Assembly: GCA_018817595.1 (NCBI GenBank)
Contig: JAHITU010000004.1
Span: 1-55,869 of the forward strand
Source: Patescibacteria group bacterium
GTDB taxonomy: Bacteria; Patescibacteriota; Minisyncoccia; Phycocordibacterales; UBA12079
Direction of reading: 5' to 3'
DNA length: 55,869 nt
Made by a program: the position numbers and the translations under genes. The stretch's first letter is position 1. Each line of letters opens with the position of its first letter. Below are positions 5,389-32,855 of the stretch, one piece after another. The notes under the pieces are model-generated. The model had not been told where the DNA came from and did not search any database. It worked only from the letters and a program-made list of their open reading frames with translations.

Positions 5389-5910
5389 TAAAAAACCATT
5401 AAAAAAGTCCCCAAAATGAGGCTTTCATTAAGGGGACTTTATGAATATCCCTATTTTTTGAAAGAAACAGAGGTTTCTTTCCTACTACTTTTTATGTATA
5501 TTTTACATATTTTTTAGATAAATTTATAAAGAACAAAAACAAACTACGGACTAACTATGAGTACGAACGATAAACTTTTTATTCAAATTAACAAAGGCTG
5601 GTAACTTCCCAGCAGAAATTTAAAATTATTTTTTTTCTCAATGAACTACCTGTCCTATATAATATTTTATATAAAAGACATTGTAAAGGACATAACTGTG
5701 GATAACTTTTTTATGTCCTTTATCCGGACAAACTCAATTTTTAATTTTATAATTTTTAATTTTTAATTAATTTCTAATGTCTTAATTTCTAAACATGACG
5801 AAAATTTGCTTTGCAAATTTTCGTAAAGTTTTAAACATTAAAAATTTTGATTTCTTTAAAAATTACAAAATTAAAAATTAAAAATTCCTTGTTTTTGATT
5901 AAAAACAAGG

Positions 5911-6807
5911 TTACCTCTTTCCATGAAACTTTTTATGTATATCTTTTAAATGTTTATCTGTCATATGGGTATAAATCTGAGTGGTAGAAATATCAGCATG
6001 ACCTAACATCATTTGCACTGATCTTAAATCAGCCCCATTCTCTAACAAATCAGTAGCAAAGGAGTGACGAATAATGTGAGGGGTTACTTTCTTAGTGATC
6101 CCTGCTTTGATAGCTGATTGTTTTACTAATCTTTCTACTGAACGAGTCGTTAAACGACTAGCAGGCCCTTTAGTATTTAAAGAAACAAACAGGGCATCGC
6201 TCATATCTTTTCTTTTTGCTAAATATTCTTTAACCGCTTTTTTAGCAGAATCAGAAAAGAAAACCACTCTGACCTTATCTCCTTTTCCTCTCACAGACAT
6301 TTCATCTTTCTTTAAATCAATATCAGAATTTAAAGCACATAATTCTGAAACCCGTAATCCAGTAGAAAAAAGTAATTCTAAAATGGCTTTGTTTCTTAAA
6401 CTGGCTAAATCTTTTTCTTTATAAACTCCTAATAATCTTCTTAATTCATCTTCATTAATTAAATCAAGGGAACGGTCACCAACCTTAGCCAACTCAATTT
6501 TTTCCGGAGCCAATGATTGAATTTCTCTTTTCACTAAATATTTCAAAAAACCTCTTAACGCGATAAGGTAATAATTTTGAGTTTTCTTTTTTATAGTATC
6601 TGAATTGTTTCCAGTTAATTGACGATTTAAATACAGACGATATTTTCTTAATTTCTCATCGGTAATAGCAGAGGGGGAGTCTGATTCTAAATAATCTAAA
6701 AATTTATTTAAATATCTATCATAATTCTCAACGGTTTTGAGGCTGCGTCCTTTTTCTATTTCTAGATATTCTAAAAATTCATTTTTTAATTTTTTTAAAT
6801 TAGACAT
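5911..6807 (-). CDS. xerC: XerC/XerD-type site-specific tyrosine recombinase (probable start ATG at 6807)
   Basis: N-terminal SAM-like domain (FLEYLEIEKGRSLKTVENY), then TGLRVSEL, RGKGDKVR, TPHIIRHSFATDLL and LGHADISTTQIYT catalytic motifs. No IntI-specific insertion is visible. Confidence 0.9.
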   Translation of the reverse strand: MSNLKKLKNEFLEYLEIEKGRSLKTVENYDRYLNKFLDYLESDSPSAITDEKLRKYRLYLNRQLTGNNSDTIKKKTQNYYLIALRGFLKYLVKREIQSLAPEKIELAKVGDRSLDLINEDELRRLLGVYKEKDLASLRNKAILELLFSTGLRVSELCALNSDIDLKKDEMSVRGKGDKVRVVFFSDSAKKAVKEYLAKRKDMSDALFVSLNTKGPASRLTTRSVERLVKQSAIKAGITKKVTPHIIRHSFATDLLENGADLRSVQMMLGHADISTTQIYTHMTDKHLKDIHKKFHGKR

Positions 6808-6884
6808 TTTAATTTTGTATTTTAATTTGAAATCATTATAACATAATAGAATAAAATATTGTGCGACATGAAATGCTACAATGC

Positions 6885-6914
6885 TTGACAATCTATATAT
6901 TATTGTTCTATAAT
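6885..6914 (+). promoter_or_regulatory. Sigma70-type promoter divergent from the recombinase
   Basis: TTGACA-N18-TATAAT. Confidence 0.7.
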
Positions 6915-6959
6915 ATACATAGAAGATTGAGGTTCATAAAAAATTTAAAGGAGAAGAAG

Positions 6960-7331
6960 ATGAAAAAATTTTTGGTTCTGATGCTTGCATTATTGGTTAT
7001 CATTCTGAGTTCGTTTTTAAACTCAGATAAAAATACACCTGTGCAGATGGAAGACGACTTCGTGGTCGTCCAAAGTTGTCAGGTCAACCACGAAAGAGAG
7101 TCTCTTGACCCTCTTTCGGAAAAGCTTGAGTTTGACTTCATTCGAAGTCTTCTGGAACAAGCCGTCGTTTTCGGGATTATCCCTTCGGTGGAAACGCCGG
7201 CGGTGATAAACCTTGATAAATTCGAAGAATTCACCAAATACGGTGGTGACGAGTTTCGAACATATAAGATAGCGAATGTTCCCGGGAAGGATTGCTTCAA
7301 GATTTTTAAGGAGGCAATCCATGCAATCTAA
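6960..7331 (+). CDS. Secreted or membrane-anchored orphan protein (123 aa from ATG 6960)
   Basis: AAAGGAG upstream, signal-peptide-like MKKFLVLMLALLVIILSSFL, and a downstream 14-bp perfect hairpin GGGTAAGGTAAATC/GATTTACCTTACCC. Confidence 0.7.
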   Translation: MKKFLVLMLALLVIILSSFLNSDKNTPVQMEDDFVVVQSCQVNHERESLDPLSEKLEFDFIRSLLEQAVVFGIIPSVETPAVINLDKFEEFTKYGGDEFRTYKIANVPGKDCFKIFKEAIHAI

Positions 7332-7450
7332 AACCTCTAACCTAGCCGAACCTCACTTCTGGGGTAAGGTAAATCAATTCGATTTACCTTACCCACCTTT
7401 CCGAGTTTATCAATAATCATTGGTAAATTGAGAAAGGTGATATAAATCAC

Positions 7451-7553
7451 TTGACAAGATAAGATATCTATGCTATCATTAAATTAGTTAAAGATAAGTA
7501 ATAAAAAATGAAGTCAAAAAAGACTTGACAAACAAATTACTTTATGATATCAT
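7451..7553 (+). promoter_or_regulatory. Two tandem near-consensus extended sigma70 promoters
   Basis: TTGACA(7451)-N17-TATCAT(7474) and TTGACA(7525)-N17-TATCAT(7548), both with TGn before the -10. Confidence 0.8.
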
Positions 7554-8196
7554 ACTAGTATACAGTTAAGGAAGAAAAGAATACTTTAAAAATTAAATAA
7601 AATCCTATTAGAGCTTACAGAAACATTTAGTTTCTTATCTCTAACAGGACAAGACTTTTTGAGGAAGGAGTTATAAAAAATCGAAAAATCGGTTGTTTAA
7701 CTTTTTTACTCAAGAAAAAGTTAAACAACCGATTTTTTGTTTAGAGAGTAGAGAATGTTTTGAATTATGAAATAGAATTCGTTACGAGAACTTTTTCGGA
7801 TTTTTCAGGTTTATTTTAAAAAAATTGAAGCACTAGCCATAGCTAATGTGAAATTTTTTTAGAATGAAGATGGAAAATAACGAAAAGTTCGGAGTAGAAT
7901 TATATTTTTTAATTTAAAACTAATAAGCAATTTGTATTTTCCACTCTCTTAATAAAGAGAAATAGTAGTTCTTTAAAATTGAACACATTCCATGAGTTAA
8001 AAGTGTTATTACCTTTTAGTTAATTAGTTTTTAAACAAATTAGTTAATTAGAAGGTGATAATACTAATAACTTAATAATTTTCTTTATTTAATCTAAAAT
8101 GCTTGGATAAATACGCGAGTTTATCCGTACCAAGCTAGCGCCTAGGAAGAACTTAATTGTTCAATGGCAAGATTGATGAGAGAAGAGGAGATTAAA

Positions 8197-8544
8197 ATGG
8201 AAAAAAGAATAGAAAAAATACAGGAAGCAATGAGACTTTTTAGTGAGTTGGAAAAAATCGTTCACGAACTAAAGTTCGTGAACAACCCACTTGACTTGGG
8301 GGCTCACGGTTTTTCTTGCTCTCTTAAGAGAGAGCTTGAAAAAGCCAAACAAATCAGCTTCCTTAGTGAAGCTGAAACAGCTCTTAAGGTCAGAGATATT
8401 CTGACATCCGACAAAAAAGTAAAGAGGGTTGGACCCGATACGTTTAGGATTTCCTATCCAGGAAACCCTTTTCATTACGGTTCAACAAGAGTCGAAGAAG
8501 TCGACTCAAAAGAGTTGATCCGGAGGCGCGGATCAATCTCGTAG
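8197..8544 (+). CDS. Orphan protein, array unit 1 (start 8197 or 8164)
   Basis: GAGGAG 6 nt upstream of ATG 8197; repeat A begins 5 bp after the stop. Confidence 0.7.
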   Translation: MEKRIEKIQEAMRLFSELEKIVHELKFVNNPLDLGAHGFSCSLKRELEKAKQISFLSEAETALKVRDILTSDKKVKRVGPDTFRISYPGNPFHYGSTRVEEVDSKELIRRRGSIS

Positions 8545-8549
8545 ATCTG

Positions 8550-8601
8550 TTCAAAATTCGGGGAATTCACGAGTTCATGTGAATTCCCCCTATTATTGAA
8601 A
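8550..8601 (+). repeat. Repeat A copy 1 (52-bp imperfect palindrome)
   Basis: TTCAAAATTCGGGGAATTCACGAGTTCATGTGAATTCCCCCTATTATTGAAA, identical at 9756 and 10249. Confidence 0.95.
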
Positions 8602-8685
8602 CTTTAATAAAAAGCGGAAGTTATACGGATTAAACGCAGACTAACGCAGAAGATTGAAGTTTCATAGTAGATAGTTCTTTAAAAT
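8602..8685 (+). repeat. Repeat B copy 1 plus junction motif
   Basis: CTTTAATAAAA-AGCGGAAGTTATACGGATTAAACGCAGACTAACGCAGAAGATTGAAGTTTCATAGTAG-ATAGTTCTTTAAAATT. Confidence 0.9.
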
Positions 8686-8772
8686 TGAATATTGTTAATT
8701 ATCTTATCTAGGATAATACTGATTTTATTGTTTTAGATAAGATAATTAACTTATAAAATCAAGGGGGTCATT

Positions 8773-9750
8773 ATGGAAAAATACGAGGTAGAATTAAACT
8801 TTTACCCGGTCAATCGGAATATTTTTGGCCGTTGGTACAAAAAGAAACAAAAATCAAAAAAAATATTTTCCCAGGATAGTAATTATGGGAAGATAATTTT
8901 TTTAAGCGACAAAGCAAAGTCGCAAATAAAATTTTTGGATTCTGAAAAAGAATACCGGGCAGTAGCGGTATTCTCGAGAAGAAATGAAACCTCTGAAGAA
9001 GTATTGTTTTTTAAAGGAATAAAAGCGCTGGGAGAAATTGTAGAAAGCGTTGATTATCGTGTTTTCTGCGAAAGAGGAATAATGAAAAAGATATCTTTTA
9101 TGGCAGACAAAACCGTAAAAGATGAATATAAAAATTTTCCCGATTTTTTCCCAGAAAGGCCTTACACAGATCTGGAAAAAAAAGAAATTTTGCTATATTT
9201 TTCCTTGAAAAAAACAGTAGCCGCTTTATCTCTTGAGTGGTCAGACAGGTACAAAGGATTCATTTCTCGATGGGATATGACAGGTGAAAAGTCATATAAA
9301 ATTGAGATAATGGATGGATTAAAAATTAAGGCGACGCCGTATGAAAAAATTAAAGCAAAGCTTTATTTCATAGATGTCGGCAAAATTCTCCAAAAAGAAG
9401 TCTTTGAGGAAAAAAGCCTCCTGGAAGACTCTTATATTGAATTAGATTACGAAATTCTCTCTGAAGAACATTTTCAAAGAGATGTTATCAATCAAAGAAA
9501 GGAGGTGTCTTTTGTTCAAGGAGGGGATTGGGCAAGAGGTCCATCTCGCTTCGCTCCCACCGGGAAGAGGATCGAAACAGAAATAGTGGAAGACTGGAAA
9601 AAAATTACCGCTAGGGTTTTGATTCCAAAAGATTATCATCTGTGGGTTGAAGAATACCTCCAGATAAAAATCAATGGTAATGAAATCTCTTTTAATATCT
9701 GTATCGGAACAAACACCGTTACAAAAAAAGTTATTTCAAACCATCGGTAG
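8773..9750 (+). CDS. Orphan protein, 325 aa, array unit 2
   Basis: Long ORF with AAGGGGG upstream; repeat A begins 5 bp after the stop. No family recognised. Confidence 0.8.
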   Translation: MEKYEVELNFYPVNRNIFGRWYKKKQKSKKIFSQDSNYGKIIFLSDKAKSQIKFLDSEKEYRAVAVFSRRNETSEEVLFFKGIKALGEIVESVDYRVFCERGIMKKISFMADKTVKDEYKNFPDFFPERPYTDLEKKEILLYFSLKKTVAALSLEWSDRYKGFISRWDMTGEKSYKIEIMDGLKIKATPYEKIKAKLYFIDVGKILQKEVFEEKSLLEDSYIELDYEILSEEHFQRDVINQRKEVSFVQGGDWARGPSRFAPTGKRIETEIVEDWKKITARVLIPKDYHLWVEEYLQIKINGNEISFNICIGTNTVTKKVISNHR

Positions 9751-9755
9751 AACTC

Positions 9756-9860
9756 TTCAAAATTCGGGGAATTCACGAGTTCATGTGAATTCCCCCTATT
9801 ATTGAAATTTTAAACCAAGGTTTGAAGTTTCATAGTAGTAAATAGAAGTTCTTTAATAAA
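9756..9860 (+). repeat. Repeat A copy 2, short module C and junction motif
   Basis: Repeat A at 9756-9807, then TTTAAACCAAGGTTTGAAGTTTCATAGTAG, then AGTTCTTTAATAAA. Confidence 0.95.
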
Positions 9861-9948
9861 AATAAAGTTTTGCCCTGTTTATGGATGGGATATAGTTTCA
9901 CCTTTTTAACATTTCGTTAATAAGGTACATATTTTTAAGGAGAATAAA

Positions 9949-10227
9949 ATGGAAAACTCTAAGTTGAAAACAGAAGAAAGACTTGAAGAAATTAAAAAAA
10001 TGAACTCTATTTCTGTTCTCGGTGCCGATTTAGGTTGGAACCGTGAAAGTATGTGGGTCGTTGTCAGAGAGGATGACCCATCTTACCAGAATTTGGCAAA
10101 AAAATACCCCACAGAGATTGAAAAAGTTCATACTCCTGAAAATTTTTTCATTTCAGAAAGTGATCTTCATGAAATGGAAGATATTGAGTACACAGCGTAT
10201 TCATTTGAAGGACCGTGCTTTTCATAA
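9949..10227 (+). CDS. Orphan acidic protein, 92 aa, array unit 3
   Basis: AAGGAG upstream; repeat A begins 21 bp after the stop. Confidence 0.7.
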   Translation: MENSKLKTEERLEEIKKMNSISVLGADLGWNRESMWVVVREDDPSYQNLAKKYPTEIEKVHTPENFFISESDLHEMEDIEYTAYSFEGPCFS

Positions 10228-10248
10228 AAGCTGAGTCCTTTAAAAATG

Positions 10249-10460
10249 TTCAAAATTCGGGGAATTCACGAGTTCATGTGAATTCCCCCTATTATTGAAA
10301 TTTTAAACCAAAGTTTGAAGTTTCATAGTAGATAGTTCTTTAATAAAACGCGGAAGTTATGCGGATTAAACGCAGACTAATGCAGAAGATTGAAGTTTCA
10401 TAGTAGTCTCGCCAAACTTTCCAAAAGAAAGTTAAGAGGATAAATAGTTCTTTAAAATTA
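10249..10460 (+). repeat. Repeat A copy 3, module C, repeat B copy 2 and two junction motifs
   Basis: A at 10249-10300, C ends at 10331, B ends at 10406. AGTTCTTTAA occurs at about 10334 and 10446. Confidence 0.95.
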
Positions 10461-10682
10461 AAGTTTGATAAAATCTTCTATTGTAAGATTTGCATCCTTA
10501 AGAATATGATGTAACAAACCAAACTTCAAACTCTTGTGTAAAGGAATAGTAATAGGTTTTAATTTTAAATCTTCATTTTGATGTAACCTTACATGACTTC
10601 CTTTTTTCCTAACCACAACATAACCAAGTTTTTCTAACTTTTTAATTGTTTCTTTTCCTGAAATAATTGGAAGTTTAGGCAT
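10458..10682 (-). CDS. hicA: HicA-family toxin (mRNA interferase)
   Basis: LEKLGY...KGSH-x-RL...TIP-x-H...L-x-x-G-L-L-x-x-IL pattern. Confidence 0.9.
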   Translation of the reverse strand: MPKLPIISGKETIKKLEKLGYVVVRKKGSHVRLHQNEDLKLKPITIPLHKSLKFGLLHHILKDANLTIEDFIKL

Positions 10683-10917
10683 ATTCTGGAAGATTTATAA
10701 AATGCAAACTAACATTTTGAGGTTTATTTTTTTTAGATTTTGTTTTATTTTCTTCAAGACAAAGTTCAGTAGCTTCTTTAATATTTTTTAAAGCATCTTC
10801 TATAGTATCTCCTTGGCTATAACAACCATCAAAACTTGGATTTATTACAGTATAACCTCCTTTTTCTTCTTCTTGAAGAATAACAGGAAATATTTTATTA
10901 TTTTGATTCTTTTTCAT
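10675..10917 (-). CDS. hicB: HicB-family antitoxin (short, N-terminal domain only)
   Basis: F-P-V-I-L...E-x-G-G-Y-x-V...P...G-C-x-S-Q-G-D-T-x-E-D-A-L-x-N-I-K-E-A pattern; overlaps the hicA start. Confidence 0.9.
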   Translation of the reverse strand: MKKNQNNKIFPVILQEEEKGGYTVINPSFDGCYSQGDTIEDALKNIKEATELCLEENKTKSKKNKPQNVSLHFINLPEYA

Positions 10918-11003
10918 GATAGCTTTATTTTACCAAAACTAGGTAAGAAGTCAAAAGAAAAATAATTTTTCCGAGTTCATCAATTAATTGGTGGATTCAG
11001 AGA

Positions 11004-11076
11004 AGTTCTTTAATAAAACGCGGAAGTTATGCGGATTAAACGCAGACTAACGCAGAAGATTGAAGTTTCATAGTAG
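11004..11076 (+). repeat. Repeat B copy 3 (last array repeat)
   Basis: AGTTCTTTAATAAAACGCGGAAGTTATGCGGATTAAACGCAGACTAACGCAGAAGATTGAAGTTTCATAGTAG. Confidence 0.92.
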
Positions 11077-11095
11077 TAAATTTACAAAAAATATT

Positions 11096-11224
11096 GGTAA
11101 AATAGTATATTTATAAAATGAGAAGTTAAATTTAATCTTTTGTTGGTATTTATACCGACAAAAACTCCTTCCTCGGAGATTAAAGCTAATTTCAACAAAA
11201 GTTTTATAAATATACTATTTTACC
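11096..11224. repeat. Element with 23-bp perfect terminal inverted repeat and structured interior
   Basis: GGTAAAATAGTATATTTATAAAA (11096-11118) pairs with 11202-11224. The interior contains a TTTGTTGGTAT/ATACCGACAAA hairpin. Confidence 0.75.
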
Positions 11225-11331
11225 TGTATTTTAACAAACTGTTTCAATACAGACAATAAAGGCTACATAATAGTTAAATACAGCACTTTATCCTTGCAAT
11301 TATTAATAAATAGTGCTATTATTCACTCGTT

Positions 11332-11598
11332 ATGTTATCAAAGACAAAGAAAGAAAACGCAATAAAAAAGACACAAACACACAAGACTGACACTGGTTCT
11401 CCAGAAGTGCAGGTTTCTGTTTTATCCAAAAAGATTGACGAATTAGCTAATCATTTAAAAATCCACAGAAAAGACAGACACTCAAGAAAAGGATTACTTC
11501 AAATGGTTGCAGACAGAAGAAAACATTTAAAATATTTACAAAGAAAATCAGTTAAGAGATATACTAAAGTAATTAAAACTTTAGGACTTAAAAAATAA
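11332..11598 (+). CDS. rpsO: 30S ribosomal protein S15
   Basis: HKTDTGSPEVQV...HLKIHRKDRHSRKGLLQMVADRRKHLKYL. Confidence 0.98.
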   Translation: MLSKTKKENAIKKTQTHKTDTGSPEVQVSVLSKKIDELANHLKIHRKDRHSRKGLLQMVADRRKHLKYLQRKSVKRYTKVIKTLGLKK

Positions 11599-11734
11599 AA
11601 TACTTTTAAACAACAACCGCTTCTGCGGTTTTTGTTTTTTTAAAATACTGCTATACTATATTTGTCTAAATCATCATATATATGAAATAGATTTTTTAAT
11701 ATTAAAACTCTGGATTGTCGCGTCATTTCACTAC

Positions 11735-11785
11735 GCCTGCCTGCCCCTGCGCGCCGGCAGGCATGGGCAGGCATGGGCAGGCAGG
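11735..11785. repeat. CCTGCC-type REP-like palindrome nested in an RPE-like element
   Basis: CCTGCCTGCCCCTGCGCGCCGGCAGGCATGGGCAGGCATGGGCAGGCAGG interrupts a copy of the 5264-type element. Confidence 0.8.
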
Positions 11786-11941
11786 CTACATTCCTCGCAA
11801 AGACGAAAAGTAAAACTTTTCGTAACGAATTTTTGCAAAGCAAAAATTCATATACATAAATACTTAATTATAAACAAAAGGAAAAACTATTATTTTTTCC
11901 TTCTAACTAGCTAATAACCTAAATAGCTAAAACCTAAATAT

Positions 11942-32219: not shown

Positions 32220-32855
32220 ATGGAAAATAAAACAAACATAAAAAAAACACAGGATTTTGTCACAATAAAAGAAATTCGTGATGGGATAATACTTCAAAAA
32301 GATGGTTCTTTAGCTACTATTTTAATGGTATCTTCAATAAACCTAGCTTTGAAATCATCAGACGAACAACAAGCTATAATTTTACAATTTCAAAATTTTC
32401 TTAACTCAATTGAATTTTCAGTGCAAATTTTTATACAATCCCAAAAATTAGATATTCGTCCTTATATAACTGTTATGGAAAATCGTTTTAAAGAGCAAAC
32501 AAATGAATTGATAAAAATCCAAACAAGAGAATATATAAATTTTATAAAATCATTTACTAATAAAACGAATATAATGACAAAATCTTTTTTTGTTGTTGTT
32601 TCTTACAATCCTCCAATTTTGGGGGGAAAGAAATCTTTAAATCCTTTTTTAAAAAAGAATGGGTCAGAAAAACAAGATAATATTTTAGAATTTGAAGAGA
32701 ATAGAACTCAATTAGAACAAAGAGTATCAATTGTAGAATCAGGTTTAACAAGAACAGGTGTTAGAATAATAAGATTAGGAACAGAGGAGGTTGTTGAATT
32801 ACTTTATAAGTTATTTAACCCGGGGGAATCAGAAAAACCAGTAAACCTTAGTTAG
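32220..32855 (+). CDS. T4SS/conjugation-associated protein (VirB4 N-terminal-like partner)
   Basis: TQDFVTIKEIRDGII...SINLALKS...FQNFLNS; lies between prgI and virB4. Confidence 0.7.
   Translation: MENKTNIKKTQDFVTIKEIRDGIILQKDGSLATILMVSSINLALKSSDEQQAIILQFQNFLNSIEFSVQIFIQSQKLDIRPYITVMENRFKEQTNELIKIQTREYINFIKSFTNKTNIMTKSFFVVVSYNPPILGGKKSLNPFLKKNGSEKQDNILEFEENRTQLEQRVSIVESGLTRTGVRIIRLGTEEVVELLYKLFNPGESEKPVNLS

Follow-up and report, generated by a model that had tools for sequence, protein, structure and literature searches.

Organization of the locus

The window, a contig of 55,869 nucleotides (55.9 kb), contains a hypervariable cassette array inserted between the genes xer and rpsO; the features described here are located on the + strand unless the − strand is indicated. 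The host is an uncultured ultra-small groundwater bacterium. The xer gene (5911..6807, − strand), divergent from the array, encodes an Xer-type tyrosine recombinase (Pfam Phage_integrase, 4.6e-47) that scores 256 bits against NCBIfam XerA_Arch, exceeding the cut-off of 220, and only 132 against the integron integrase model TIGR02249 (cut-off 265), in a match split into two stretches. On the opposite side, rpsO, coding for S15 (11332..11598; Pfam Ribosomal_S15, 5.9e-30), is conserved and flanks the insertion site on the right. Orthologues of xer adjoin rpsO in about 60 relatives. Three related Paceibacterota loci (L004, L014, and L018) share the same platform and carry entirely different genes; arrays at this site occur in one clade of Paceibacterota, a group of the candidate phyla radiation. 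A signal-peptide ORF (6960..7331), with a terminator hairpin at 7362-7394, sits between xer and the promoters of the array; in L018 its place is taken by a BrnT/CopG-like toxin-antitoxin pair.

Ahead of each array stand one or two near-consensus promoters, followed by a structured leader that includes its own intrinsic terminator (T1), and then by the units. A unit opens with GTTCTTTAA(A/T)A and a short 5' UTR that includes a Shine-Dalgarno sequence, continues with a single ORF, mostly an orphan, and closes with the hairpins H1 and H2. An earlier note on this DNA had described two extended promoters 74 bp apart (7451 and 7525), and both are confirmed: P1 (7451..7479) and P2 (7525..7553) have the form TTGACA-17-TATCAT, are TG-extended, and agree with the consensus at 11 of 12 positions. 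P1 is conserved in L004, L014, and L018, with the second promoter in the same place as P2 in L018, upstream of P1 in L004, and absent in L014.

The leader is highly structured (fold z = -11). Its first hairpin, L1 (7605..7649, CCTATTAGAG...CTCTAACAGG), keeps its pairing in L004 through the variant CCCATTAGAA...TTCTAACGGG, and the tails of both L004 and L018 have L1-like hairpins as well. The SD-like leader strand TTGAGGAAGGAGTT (7659..7672) is followed by T1 (7679..7744), a strong intrinsic-terminator-like hairpin with a 20-bp stem (7687-7734) leading into the T-run TTTTTTGTTT; this stem co-varies in L004 and L014. A structured rod ending in a small hairpin (7743..7966, with the hairpin at 7945-7960) comes next. 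It includes a variable insert (7756-7925) that is missing from L004, L014, and a further relative, X4, in which the joint is 7756>7925.

At the other end of the array, the tail (11088..11232) forms a long hairpin with 31-nt arms, the inverted repeat I5, 94% complementary, and encloses the trailer strand AACTCCTTCCTCGG (11163-11176), which can pair with the leader strand. Both L004 and L018 have a conserved version of the tail. The complementarity of leader and trailer, at least 14 nt long, brackets the whole array, with a predicted duplex of -25.9 kcal/mol in this genome and of about -26 to -33 kcal/mol across the array loci, where U-G pairs and lineage-specific extensions occur. The leader strand is exclusive to the four array loci and the trailer strand to three of them, the L014 contig ending before the tail.

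Three of the cassettes encode orphan proteins. The ORF of cassette 1 (8164..8544, 126 aa, likely start at 8197) has no Pfam or NCBIfam match and no homologue among 5.8 billion proteins, that of cassette 2 (8773..9750, 325 aa) has no homologue in the protein search, and that of cassette 3 (9949..10227) is 92 aa long. A reversed cassette on the − strand includes hicA (10458-10682; Pfam HicA_toxin, 4.8e-14) and hicB (10675-10917; Pfam HicB_lk_antitox, 1.2e-11), with its own promoter (10954-10927). Cassette 2 is the sole part of the array found in an RNA run, as a 197-nt metatranscriptome contig identical to 8758-8954; its depth is similar to that of pnp, although it is a single low-depth contig, covers neither the leader nor the junctions, and may reflect DNA carry-over. 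No rRNA is present in the window or in any of 93 loci, the array region matches no Rfam family, and a tblastn search covering about 1 Mb around xer found no nusB.

A boxA-like motif at the unit boundaries

The six recurrences of a short motif listed in the earlier note are borne out by a search of the whole contig, in which AGTTCTTTAA has exact copies at 7967, 8673, 9847, 10334, 10446, and 11004, all on the + strand, and none outside the array. Six copies clustered in 3.05 kb on one strand of the 55.9-kb contig are far from chance. With one mismatch allowed, 23 matches are found versus 23.5 expected, a chance level, which means that weight can be given to the exact, clustered copies alone; for the 9-mer GTTCTTTAA, six occurrences compare with 2.45 expected. 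The proposed resemblance to boxA takes the form of an exact fit to the experimentally derived consensus GYTCTTTAANA (Baniulyte et al. 2017, PMC5725501). This 11-mer has seven matches in the window versus 1.34 expected, a number reached in 0 of 100 shuffles, and all six array copies are among these seven matches, although A/T-rich 9-11-mers are easier chance matches in a genome of ~30% GC.

As claimed earlier, the motif marks the starts of units: ORF units of 126, 325, and 92 aa follow three of the copies, the ORF-less element B follows two, and the reversed hicAB unit follows the remaining one. Copy 1 (AGTTCTTTAAAA, 7967..7978) lies at the junction between the leader and cassette 1; further exact copies fitting the consensus are found at 8673..8684 (copy 2), 9847..9858 (copy 3, AGTTCTTTAATA), and 10446..10457 (copy 5). 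Copy 4, together with element B and the 3' arm of H2, makes up an 'empty' unit (10334..10406), and copy 6, in the same company, the last unit of the array (11004..11076). The association with strong hairpins also holds, with four of the six copies unpaired directly 3' of hairpins (z = -4.6 to -6.2) and the remaining two preceded by small, non-significant ones.

Across the four arrays, associated with Xer proteins of 73-85% identity, the motif is present in 19 of 19 junctions, where the only conserved positions are G-T-T-C-T-T-T-A-A-(A/T)-(A/T), a block devoid of dyad symmetry with variable flanks. It is in the promoter-sense orientation throughout, including at the reversed hicAB and ParE-like cassettes.

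Junction hairpins and cassette turnover

The junction module consists of the terminator-like hairpin H1, the 19-bp sense-strand hairpin H2, and the motif, which is the invariant, non-palindromic core of the module. H1 occurs three times (8560..8589, GGGGAATTCAC-N8-GTGAATTCCCC; 9766..9795; and 10259..10288), identical at 30 of 30 positions within the array, and its stems are wholly replaced between arrays. The first copy of H2 (8589..8672; -25.8 kcal/mol, z = -4.6) accommodates element B (8614-8652) in its loop and, although outside the training set, matches the H2 covariance model with 51.7 bits; the second (9795..9840) scores 70.8 bits in sense versus 29.9 in antisense, and the third (10288..10333) 71 bits. 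In seven distinct copies all cells of the 19 pairs are paired (100%), with double compensatory changes at four pairs and two invariant U-G pairs. The model scores are 52-74 bits in sense versus 24-34 in antisense, with no other match in 858 kb, and this pattern of pairs, along with the much higher sense score, indicates that it is on the transcript strand that the structure is read. The sense-strand hairpin before motif copy 6 (10968..11003; -17.7 kcal/mol, z = -4.8) has three G-U pairs and resembles 7398-7440, both belonging to the repeat family D14.

The near-identity of the modules within an array, as in H1, would be expected from gene conversion. On this view, they would be intergenic repeats that contain terminators and have spread through tandem duplication, gene conversion, and homologous recombination following DNA uptake, and the motif itself would be functionless. 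A related strain in which a 745-nt segment differs, bounded by the 17-nt repeat TTGAAGTTTCATAGTAG, agrees with such an origin. We find it very unlikely, as the motif is invariant in four species while adjacent stems change by compensation and H1 stems are replaced entirely, a pattern of selection rather than drift. In addition, the motif is present where both H1 and H2 are absent, namely in the leader, at the hicAB flanks, and at the extra hairpins of L018.

The units had been viewed as a fixed transcription array; instead, they are interchangeable cassettes, and the place beside xer where they lie is a hot spot for insertion. At this site the content is wholly different in four genomes, and in most relatives the site is empty. 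Related populations have these same modules attached to different cassettes, with breakpoints immediately on either side of the motif and also following CATAGTAG; what lies to the left of the motif assorts independently of what lies to its right. Because the cassettes can be swapped beside xer, the junction may play a role at the DNA level, with GTTCTTTAA as the core or crossover site of integron-like recombination by the adjacent Xer or an unlinked enzyme, and with a coincidental likeness to boxA. The position of the motif, exactly at the boundary between variable and conserved DNA, is where a crossover site would be.

The anatomy of the locus points the same way. Sedentary chromosomal integrons, such as the Vibrio superintegron with its near-identical VCR-type attC repeats and its toxin-antitoxin cassettes, share several features with the array. 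In both, the proximal end has promoters and a divergently oriented gene for a tyrosine recombinase, and the cassettes, mostly without promoters, each hold a single orphan ORF and face one way. In both, the conserved junction repeats of a given array are near-identical, toxin-antitoxin cassettes lie in reverse and have a promoter of their own, and related genomes differ in content. We nevertheless regard recombination at the motif as unlikely. The conserved block is just 9-11 nt long, without dyad symmetry, and the junctions have neither the 11-6-11 architecture of Xer/dif-type sites nor the GTTRRRY/RYYYAAC architecture of attC, including its R''/L''-L'/R' boxes. H2 and the motif are 0 to ~40 nt apart, a variability atypical of a precise crossover, the motif is missing from the final junction of each array, and excision products were not observed. 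Whereas attC sites use the bottom strand for folding, the hairpins here form on the sense strand and contain G-U pairs. The recombinase has no IntI-specific insertion and is the ordinary orthologue of Xer, located beside rpsO also in array-free genomes.

Known Xer-dependent modules, the pdif modules of Acinetobacter plasmids and the IMEX elements that use dif, are likewise discrete gene modules, toxin-antitoxin genes included, linked to an Xer-type recombinase. The array differs from them in having no 11-6-11 dif-like site at its unit boundaries and in its sites being direct repeats rather than alternately inverted ones. The sole Xer-associated conserved motif, ATATTGTGCGAC, is absent from the array and has one copy, beside xer.

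A proposed nut-like site in the transcript

The match to the boxA consensus, the invariance of the motif, the sense-strand hairpins, and the complementarity of leader and trailer together favour an RNA-level reading over a recombinase core site. We propose, with a confidence not quite amounting to an even chance, that AGTTCTTTAA is the single-stranded core of a nut-like site, a hairpin followed by boxA, that forms the 5' boundary of every unit. The findings suggest that swappable genes are expressed with rRNA-operon-style signals.

The rrn operons have boxB-boxA-boxC antitermination sites in the leader and spacer, with an rrnTAC nucleated by NusB-S10, along with tandem P1/P2 promoters and leader-trailer processing helices. 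The array resembles these operons in its tandem strong promoters, in a signal repeated inside the transcription unit (in the leader and spacer in rrn), and in a cargo bracketed by complementary strands (the flanks of 16S and 23S rRNA in rrn). The 11-mer that fits the boxA consensus (PMC5725501) is a further likeness, as is the hairpin directly upstream of boxA, an order also seen in the rrn leaders of B. subtilis (PMC13753749). However, the cargo of the array is protein-coding and swappable rather than rRNA, the boxA-like copies number six, one per unit, versus two in rrn, and no boxC was recognized.

A further difference is the strong intrinsic terminator between the promoters and the first boxA. 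Since T1 is located downstream of P1/P2 and upstream of the first motif copy, the motif is unable to help polymerase past it, and the idea that one promoter pair simply reads through the array is too simple. Of the rRNA-operon-like hardware postulated in the earlier note, the boxA match and the order of hairpin and boxA stand, with the leader-trailer helix as an addition of the present analysis, and simple read-through is not supported. In the mechanism that we propose, polymerase, presumably starting at P1/P2 and in part escaping T1, would encounter boxA at each unit head, where NusB-S10 could be loaded or reloaded. Modified in this way, the polymerase might then continue through H1, through the B units, which are untranslated, and through the toxin-antitoxin cassette in antisense, escaping both Rho-dependent and intrinsic termination, each of which the rrn complex is known to counter (PMC13753749). 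As the boxA signal would be part of the cassette boundary, every newly acquired cassette would bring its own copy.

Precedents for boxA outside rRNA operons come from Proteobacteria, whereas the array belongs to Patescibacteria. Stringer et al. reportedly described, in 2020, boxA upstream of CRISPR arrays. The same location is mentioned in PMC13753749, boxA has been added to synthetic CRISPR arrays (PMC7862264), and it is found in the 5' UTR of suhB and in other mRNAs (Baniulyte et al. 2017, PMC5725501). In such cases boxA serves to protect or regulate a non-rRNA transcription unit that is long, rich in repeats, and in part untranslated, a role that it may also have in the array. The known cases feature a single leader boxA, unlike the one per cassette head, within a boundary module, that is seen here.

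The invariant single-stranded motif and the sense-strand structure would equally be expected if the module acted in the transcript without Nus factors, as an RNase processing site dividing the mRNAs of individual cassettes, a stabilizer, or the binding site of another RNA-binding protein. The helix of leader and trailer is similar to the stems that RNase III processes, the arrays encode RNases of the HicA, BrnT, and ParE/RelE types, and GTTCTTTGAAA heads a small-RNA-like unit outside the array in five relatives. Such a role seems improbable to us, because six of six exact fits to a protein-binding consensus are hard to blame on chance and the region is without an Rfam match; we also know of no processing signal with the sequence of the motif.

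The small-RNA-like unit lies beyond xer and is conserved, although degenerate in this genome, and its start with GTTCTTTGAAA indicates that the motif is used outside the array too.

Promoters, leader and motif copies of the array

Two extended promoters, P1 (7451–7479) and P2 (7525–7553), precede the array of cassettes located between xer and rpsO, each consisting of TTGACA-17-TATCAT with a TG extension and agreeing with the consensus in 11 of 12 positions. Downstream from them, the motif AGTTCTTTAA is found exactly six times, at 7967, 8673, 9847, 10334, 10446, and 11004, in every case on the + strand, with no further exact copy in the rest of the 55.9-kb contig. The observations from which an earlier note had proposed that rRNA-operon-like hardware drives a non-rRNA array (7440–11020), namely the two promoters and the six clustered copies of the motif, are confirmed. 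Once one mismatch is allowed, the count in the contig is at the chance level, and the signal is therefore limited to the exact, clustered, and co-oriented set. The sequence of boxA in E. coli is UGCUCUUUAACA. When the motif is extended to 11 nt, all six array copies fit GYTCTTTAANA, the consensus obtained from functional E. coli boxA elements by Baniulyte et al. (PMC5725501). Seven matches to this consensus are present in the window, compared to 1.34 expected, and none of 100 shuffles reaches that number. The seventh match, GCTCTTTAAAA (32486–32496, minus strand), lies antisense within an ORF (32220–32855) and is probably due to chance.

P1 is kept in all four arrays that carry the motif, those of the window and of the related Paceibacterota loci L004, L014, and L018; two promoters are present in three of the four, with the position of the second one not being conserved. 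All copies of the motif share the strand with P1 and P2, and T1, a 20-bp terminator-like hairpin followed by a T-run, with a stem that co-varies in L004 and L014, stands between these promoters and the first copy. P1 and P2 may therefore yield mainly a short leader RNA. Whatever controls the entry of transcription into the array has to be distinct from boxA.

The leader strand TTGAGGAAGGAGTT (7659–7672) is complementary to the strand AACTCCTTCCTCGG (11163–11176) in the tail that follows the array. Within about 1 Mb, this leader–trailer pair recurs in L004 and L018 only. The duplexes, with energies of −26 to −33 kcal/mol, include U-G pairs and lineage-specific extensions; their core is invariant, and covariation is confined to the extensions. 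Such complementarity, bracketing the cargo, resembles the leader–trailer helices of 16S and 23S rRNA. The same leader strand is a very strong Shine–Dalgarno-like sequence (GAGGAAGGAG), placed 7–15 nt ahead of T1 and followed by no conserved ORF, and the trailer is anti-SD-like; together, the two could form a ribosome- or RNA-sensing gate for array entry. The leader rod includes an inserted hairpin of 168 nt (7756–7925) that is missing from L004, L014, and a relative in run X4 (joint 7756>7925) and looks like an optional hairpin module. The sole RNA run that contains the strain is tiny and gave one 197-nt contig, located in cassette 2 and with a depth like that of pnp, with zero coverage of the leader and the junctions.

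The junction module and its probable reading in the transcript

Repeat analysis and folding define a composite junction module that closes with the motif. The module begins with GTTCAAA, which is followed by H1, a GC-rich terminator-like hairpin of GGGGAATTCAC-N8-GTGAATTCCCC and then CCTATTATT, by the conserved hairpin H2, in which CTATTAT-T-GAAATTTTAAAC is paired to GTTTGAAGTTTC-ATAGTAG, and, 0–10 nt after H2, by AGTTCTTTAA. Over 19 junctions, the conserved block around the motif is G-T-T-C-T-T-T-A-A-(A/T)-(A/T) alone, 9–11 nt in length and devoid of dyad symmetry, and it lies anywhere between 0 and about 40 nt from H2, with a spacer that at times includes an extra hairpin. The usual location of the motif just after strong hairpins, also claimed previously, was reproduced by folding for four of the six copies, which are unpaired and lie 3' of significantly stable hairpins.

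All 19 pairs of H2 are formed (100%) in seven distinct copies, with double compensatory changes at four pairs. Two further features concern the strand: H2 includes two invariant U-G pairs, which on the opposite strand would be A-C mismatches, and its covariance model scores 52–74 bits on the sense strand vs 24–34 bits on the antisense strand. When applied to 858 kb, the model matched the 11 junction copies only, and it recovered the copy that carries the ORF-less repeat named element B, though the latter was outside the training set. In addition, the hairpin ahead of motif copy 6, beside the reversed hicAB pair, has three G-U pairs on the + strand. That these modules are passive repeats we consider very improbable. 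With a short block that has no dyad, a varying spacer, and a sense-strand H2 with U-G pairs, the junction is best read in the sense transcript.

The order of a hairpin and then the motif is the same as in the rrn leaders of B. subtilis, where a small hairpin is directly followed by boxA, AUGAUCUUUGAAA, as described in a 2026 study; according to the summary given there, Rho is blocked by the rrn complex, which also hampers intrinsic termination (PMC13753749). The best single explanation, which we hold tentatively, is a boxA-like role of the junction motif at the RNA level, with putative binding of NusB–S10 that would render the polymerase resistant to termination. The module carrying the motif could instead have another role in the RNA, an alternative that appears unlikely. 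A search with tblastn for NusB, using an approximate E. coli NusB sequence as the query, gave no match in about 1 Mb around xer, a negative that carries no weight. No rRNA was found in the window or in all 93 loci searched; Rfam, both at the gathering threshold and at E<=5, returned tRNAs and meaningless miRNA-type hairpin matches only, and a scan of viral contigs with a 17-mer returned just nine single, chance-like matches.

Two other candidates for the junction were rejected. A sigma-70 promoter is not indicated, with the distance between TTGAAG and a −10-like hexamer being 20 nt and varying, and with nothing flagged there in a scan of the + strand. Pairing of the motif with the upstream TTGAAG was rejected since L014 and L018 have TTGAAA and yet the C of the motif is kept, so that covariation is absent.

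The xer–rpsO site and comparison with integrons

The recombinase encoded 5' of the array (5911–6807, minus strand) is a tyrosine recombinase of the Xer type, with an Xer-type model as its best match and the Xer model passed, and it fails the integron-integrase model TIGR02249, with 132 bits in two stretches compared to the cut-off of 265. L004, a locus from a Candidatus Paceibacterota MAG found by scanning a genome collection with the junction 19-mer, has the same gene order as the window (xer, promoters, leader, array, tail, rpsO, an NYN gene, and pnp), with wholly different cargo. From 308 confirmed Xer loci, 80 metagenomic loci with Xer orthologues (63–84% identical) were taken, and in most of these xer and rpsO are divergent and separated by 37–300 bp, leaving the site empty. 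The arrays with the motif, in the window, L004 (Xer 85% identical), L014 (84%), and L018 (73%), have no cargo in common, and their similarity is limited to leader, junction modules, and tail. L018 includes a reversed ParE-like pair and, in the gap that separates xer from the promoters, a BrnT/CopG-like pair. Unrelated inserts occupy this site in other relatives, such as an IS-like integrase-core gene (L015), a secreted protein whose leader is GC-rich (L016), or an FKBP-like gene (L037, L039, L051, L059, L075, and L078). Ranging in length from 37 bp to 6.1 kb, the xer–rpsO intergenic region (6808–11331 in the window) acts as a general hot spot for insertions within the clade.

The units between the motifs contain ORFs of 126, 325, and 92 aa that match no family, and no homologues of the 325-aa and 115-aa cassette proteins were found among 5.8 billion proteins; the boundaries of the cassettes are therefore not definable from common cargo. 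A further unit consists of the hicAB toxin–antitoxin pair, which is reversed and has its own promoter. It is flanked by ORF-less units formed by two copies of element B (10350–10388 and 11020–11058), with a third copy (8614–8652) located within the loop of the H2 at 8598–8663. This element is 39 nt long, is composed of the paired direct repeats GCGGA-N6-GCGGA and then CGCAGA-N4-CGCAGA, and is limited to the array of this genome and an X3 relative. A direct repeat of ~45 nt (TTTCCGAGTTYATCAAT...) is present just 5' of P1 (7398–7440) and again where the hicAB unit ends on the right (10968–11003), and the segment 10434–10462 is similar to the junction between the leader and cassette 1 (7955–7983), so that the ends of the hicAB unit resemble both ends of the promoter–leader block. 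In the source run, as well as in related groundwater and estuary populations, the same junction modules are fused to other sequences, with breakpoints immediately left of AGTTCTTTAA, immediately right of AGTTCTTTAA, and after CATAGTAG. The array of one relative stops after cassette 3.

Standing at the cassette boundaries, as a recombination site would, the motif might be a site of DNA crossover. The attC site of integrons is an imperfect palindrome, R''(RYYYAAC)-L''...L'-R'(GTTRRRY), that folds as the bottom strand, and an Xer/dif site comprises 28–31 bp, with two inverted 11-bp arms and a 6–8-bp spacer. The array block, short, dyad-less, and variably spaced, differs from both kinds of tyrosine-recombinase core (Xer 11-6-11 and the R/L boxes of attC), and a crossover at the motif is, in our estimate, improbable. 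A dif-like site at the junctions was rejected, with no dyad around the motif and conservation of 9–11 nt. A classical integron was likewise rejected on the integrase model and the attC features: no integrase of the IntI type, with its extra domain specific to integrons, was found at the array, GTTCTTT departs from GTTRRRY, and the hairpins favor the sense strand and do not include the motif. As both the integrase and the attC tests fail, the locus falls outside the integron family. Its cargo differs among related genomes at a fixed platform, as in integrons, and its cassette turnover is like that of a sedentary integron. The readings partly overlap, and a module serving expression may, through its conservation, also give homology for cassette exchange.

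We can speculate, with low confidence, that this clade within the Paceibacterota possesses an integrase-less or Xer-assisted platform for gene capture, in which each captured cassette would be provided with a nut-like module made of a terminator-like hairpin, a covarying hairpin, and boxA, and the array would be expressed in the manner of an rRNA operon, with a promoter pair, a gated leader, reloading of Nus factors at each cassette, and a leader–trailer helix. If this were true, expression of newly acquired orphan genes would be coupled to the rRNA transcription machinery. To our knowledge, boxA-dependent antitermination has been described for rRNA operons, for CRISPR arrays, and for a small number of mRNAs, in each case with one boxA located in the leader, and integrons are essentially undescribed in the candidate phyla radiation. 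What is new here, as far as the sequence tells, is that every cassette in this hypervariable array has a boxA-like copy as part of its boundary, and no publication joining integron-like cassette arrays with boxA was found in the literature. Confirmation of this arrangement would reveal a new means to guarantee the expression of horizontally acquired promoterless genes and give the first indication of the manner in which cassette arrays are expressed in the candidate phyla radiation.

Sequences flanking the array

Copies of the motif are located shortly after promoters in 10 of 62 cases, compared to 1.3% in permuted controls, a result given little weight. Five of the ten represent the same orthologous small-RNA unit, another three (L015, L030, and L089) are isolated cases close to a promoter, and two are array junctions of L004, 40 nt past a promoter-like match. 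The small-RNA-like unit is conserved just downstream of xer (5400–5700 in the window, minus strand; L004 7992, L014 3417, L015 7024, L016 9191, and L018 9276) and matches nothing in Rfam, nor any tRNA or tmRNA. It consists of a promoter, GTCCTTTACA-17-TATCAT, followed by AAGGACAGTTAGTTCTTTGAAA, a second GTTCTTT box, CCTCTGTTTTCTTTCAA, and a terminator, with the first box being degenerate in the window (GTAGTTCATTGAG). The presence of a boxA-like box in the 5' part of this unit shows that the motif is used outside the arrays too.

The sequence ATATTGTGCGAC or its complement is found in either orientation near the 5' end of xer (6856–6867 in the window, and in about 50 of the loci L014–L093), in many loci with a TGnTATAAT −10 element on one side and the start codon of xer on the other, and as a perfect 16-6-16 palindrome in L059 and L037. 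It occurs once in the window, is absent from the array, and could be an Xer operator or a recombination half-site. On the other side of the array, a GC-rich repeat (GCCTGCCCCTGCGCGCCGGCAGGCATGGGCAGG...) at 11700–11800 reaches a word depth of ~960 in the source run vs ~65 in its flanks and, with many different flanks, represents a multi-copy REP-like element.
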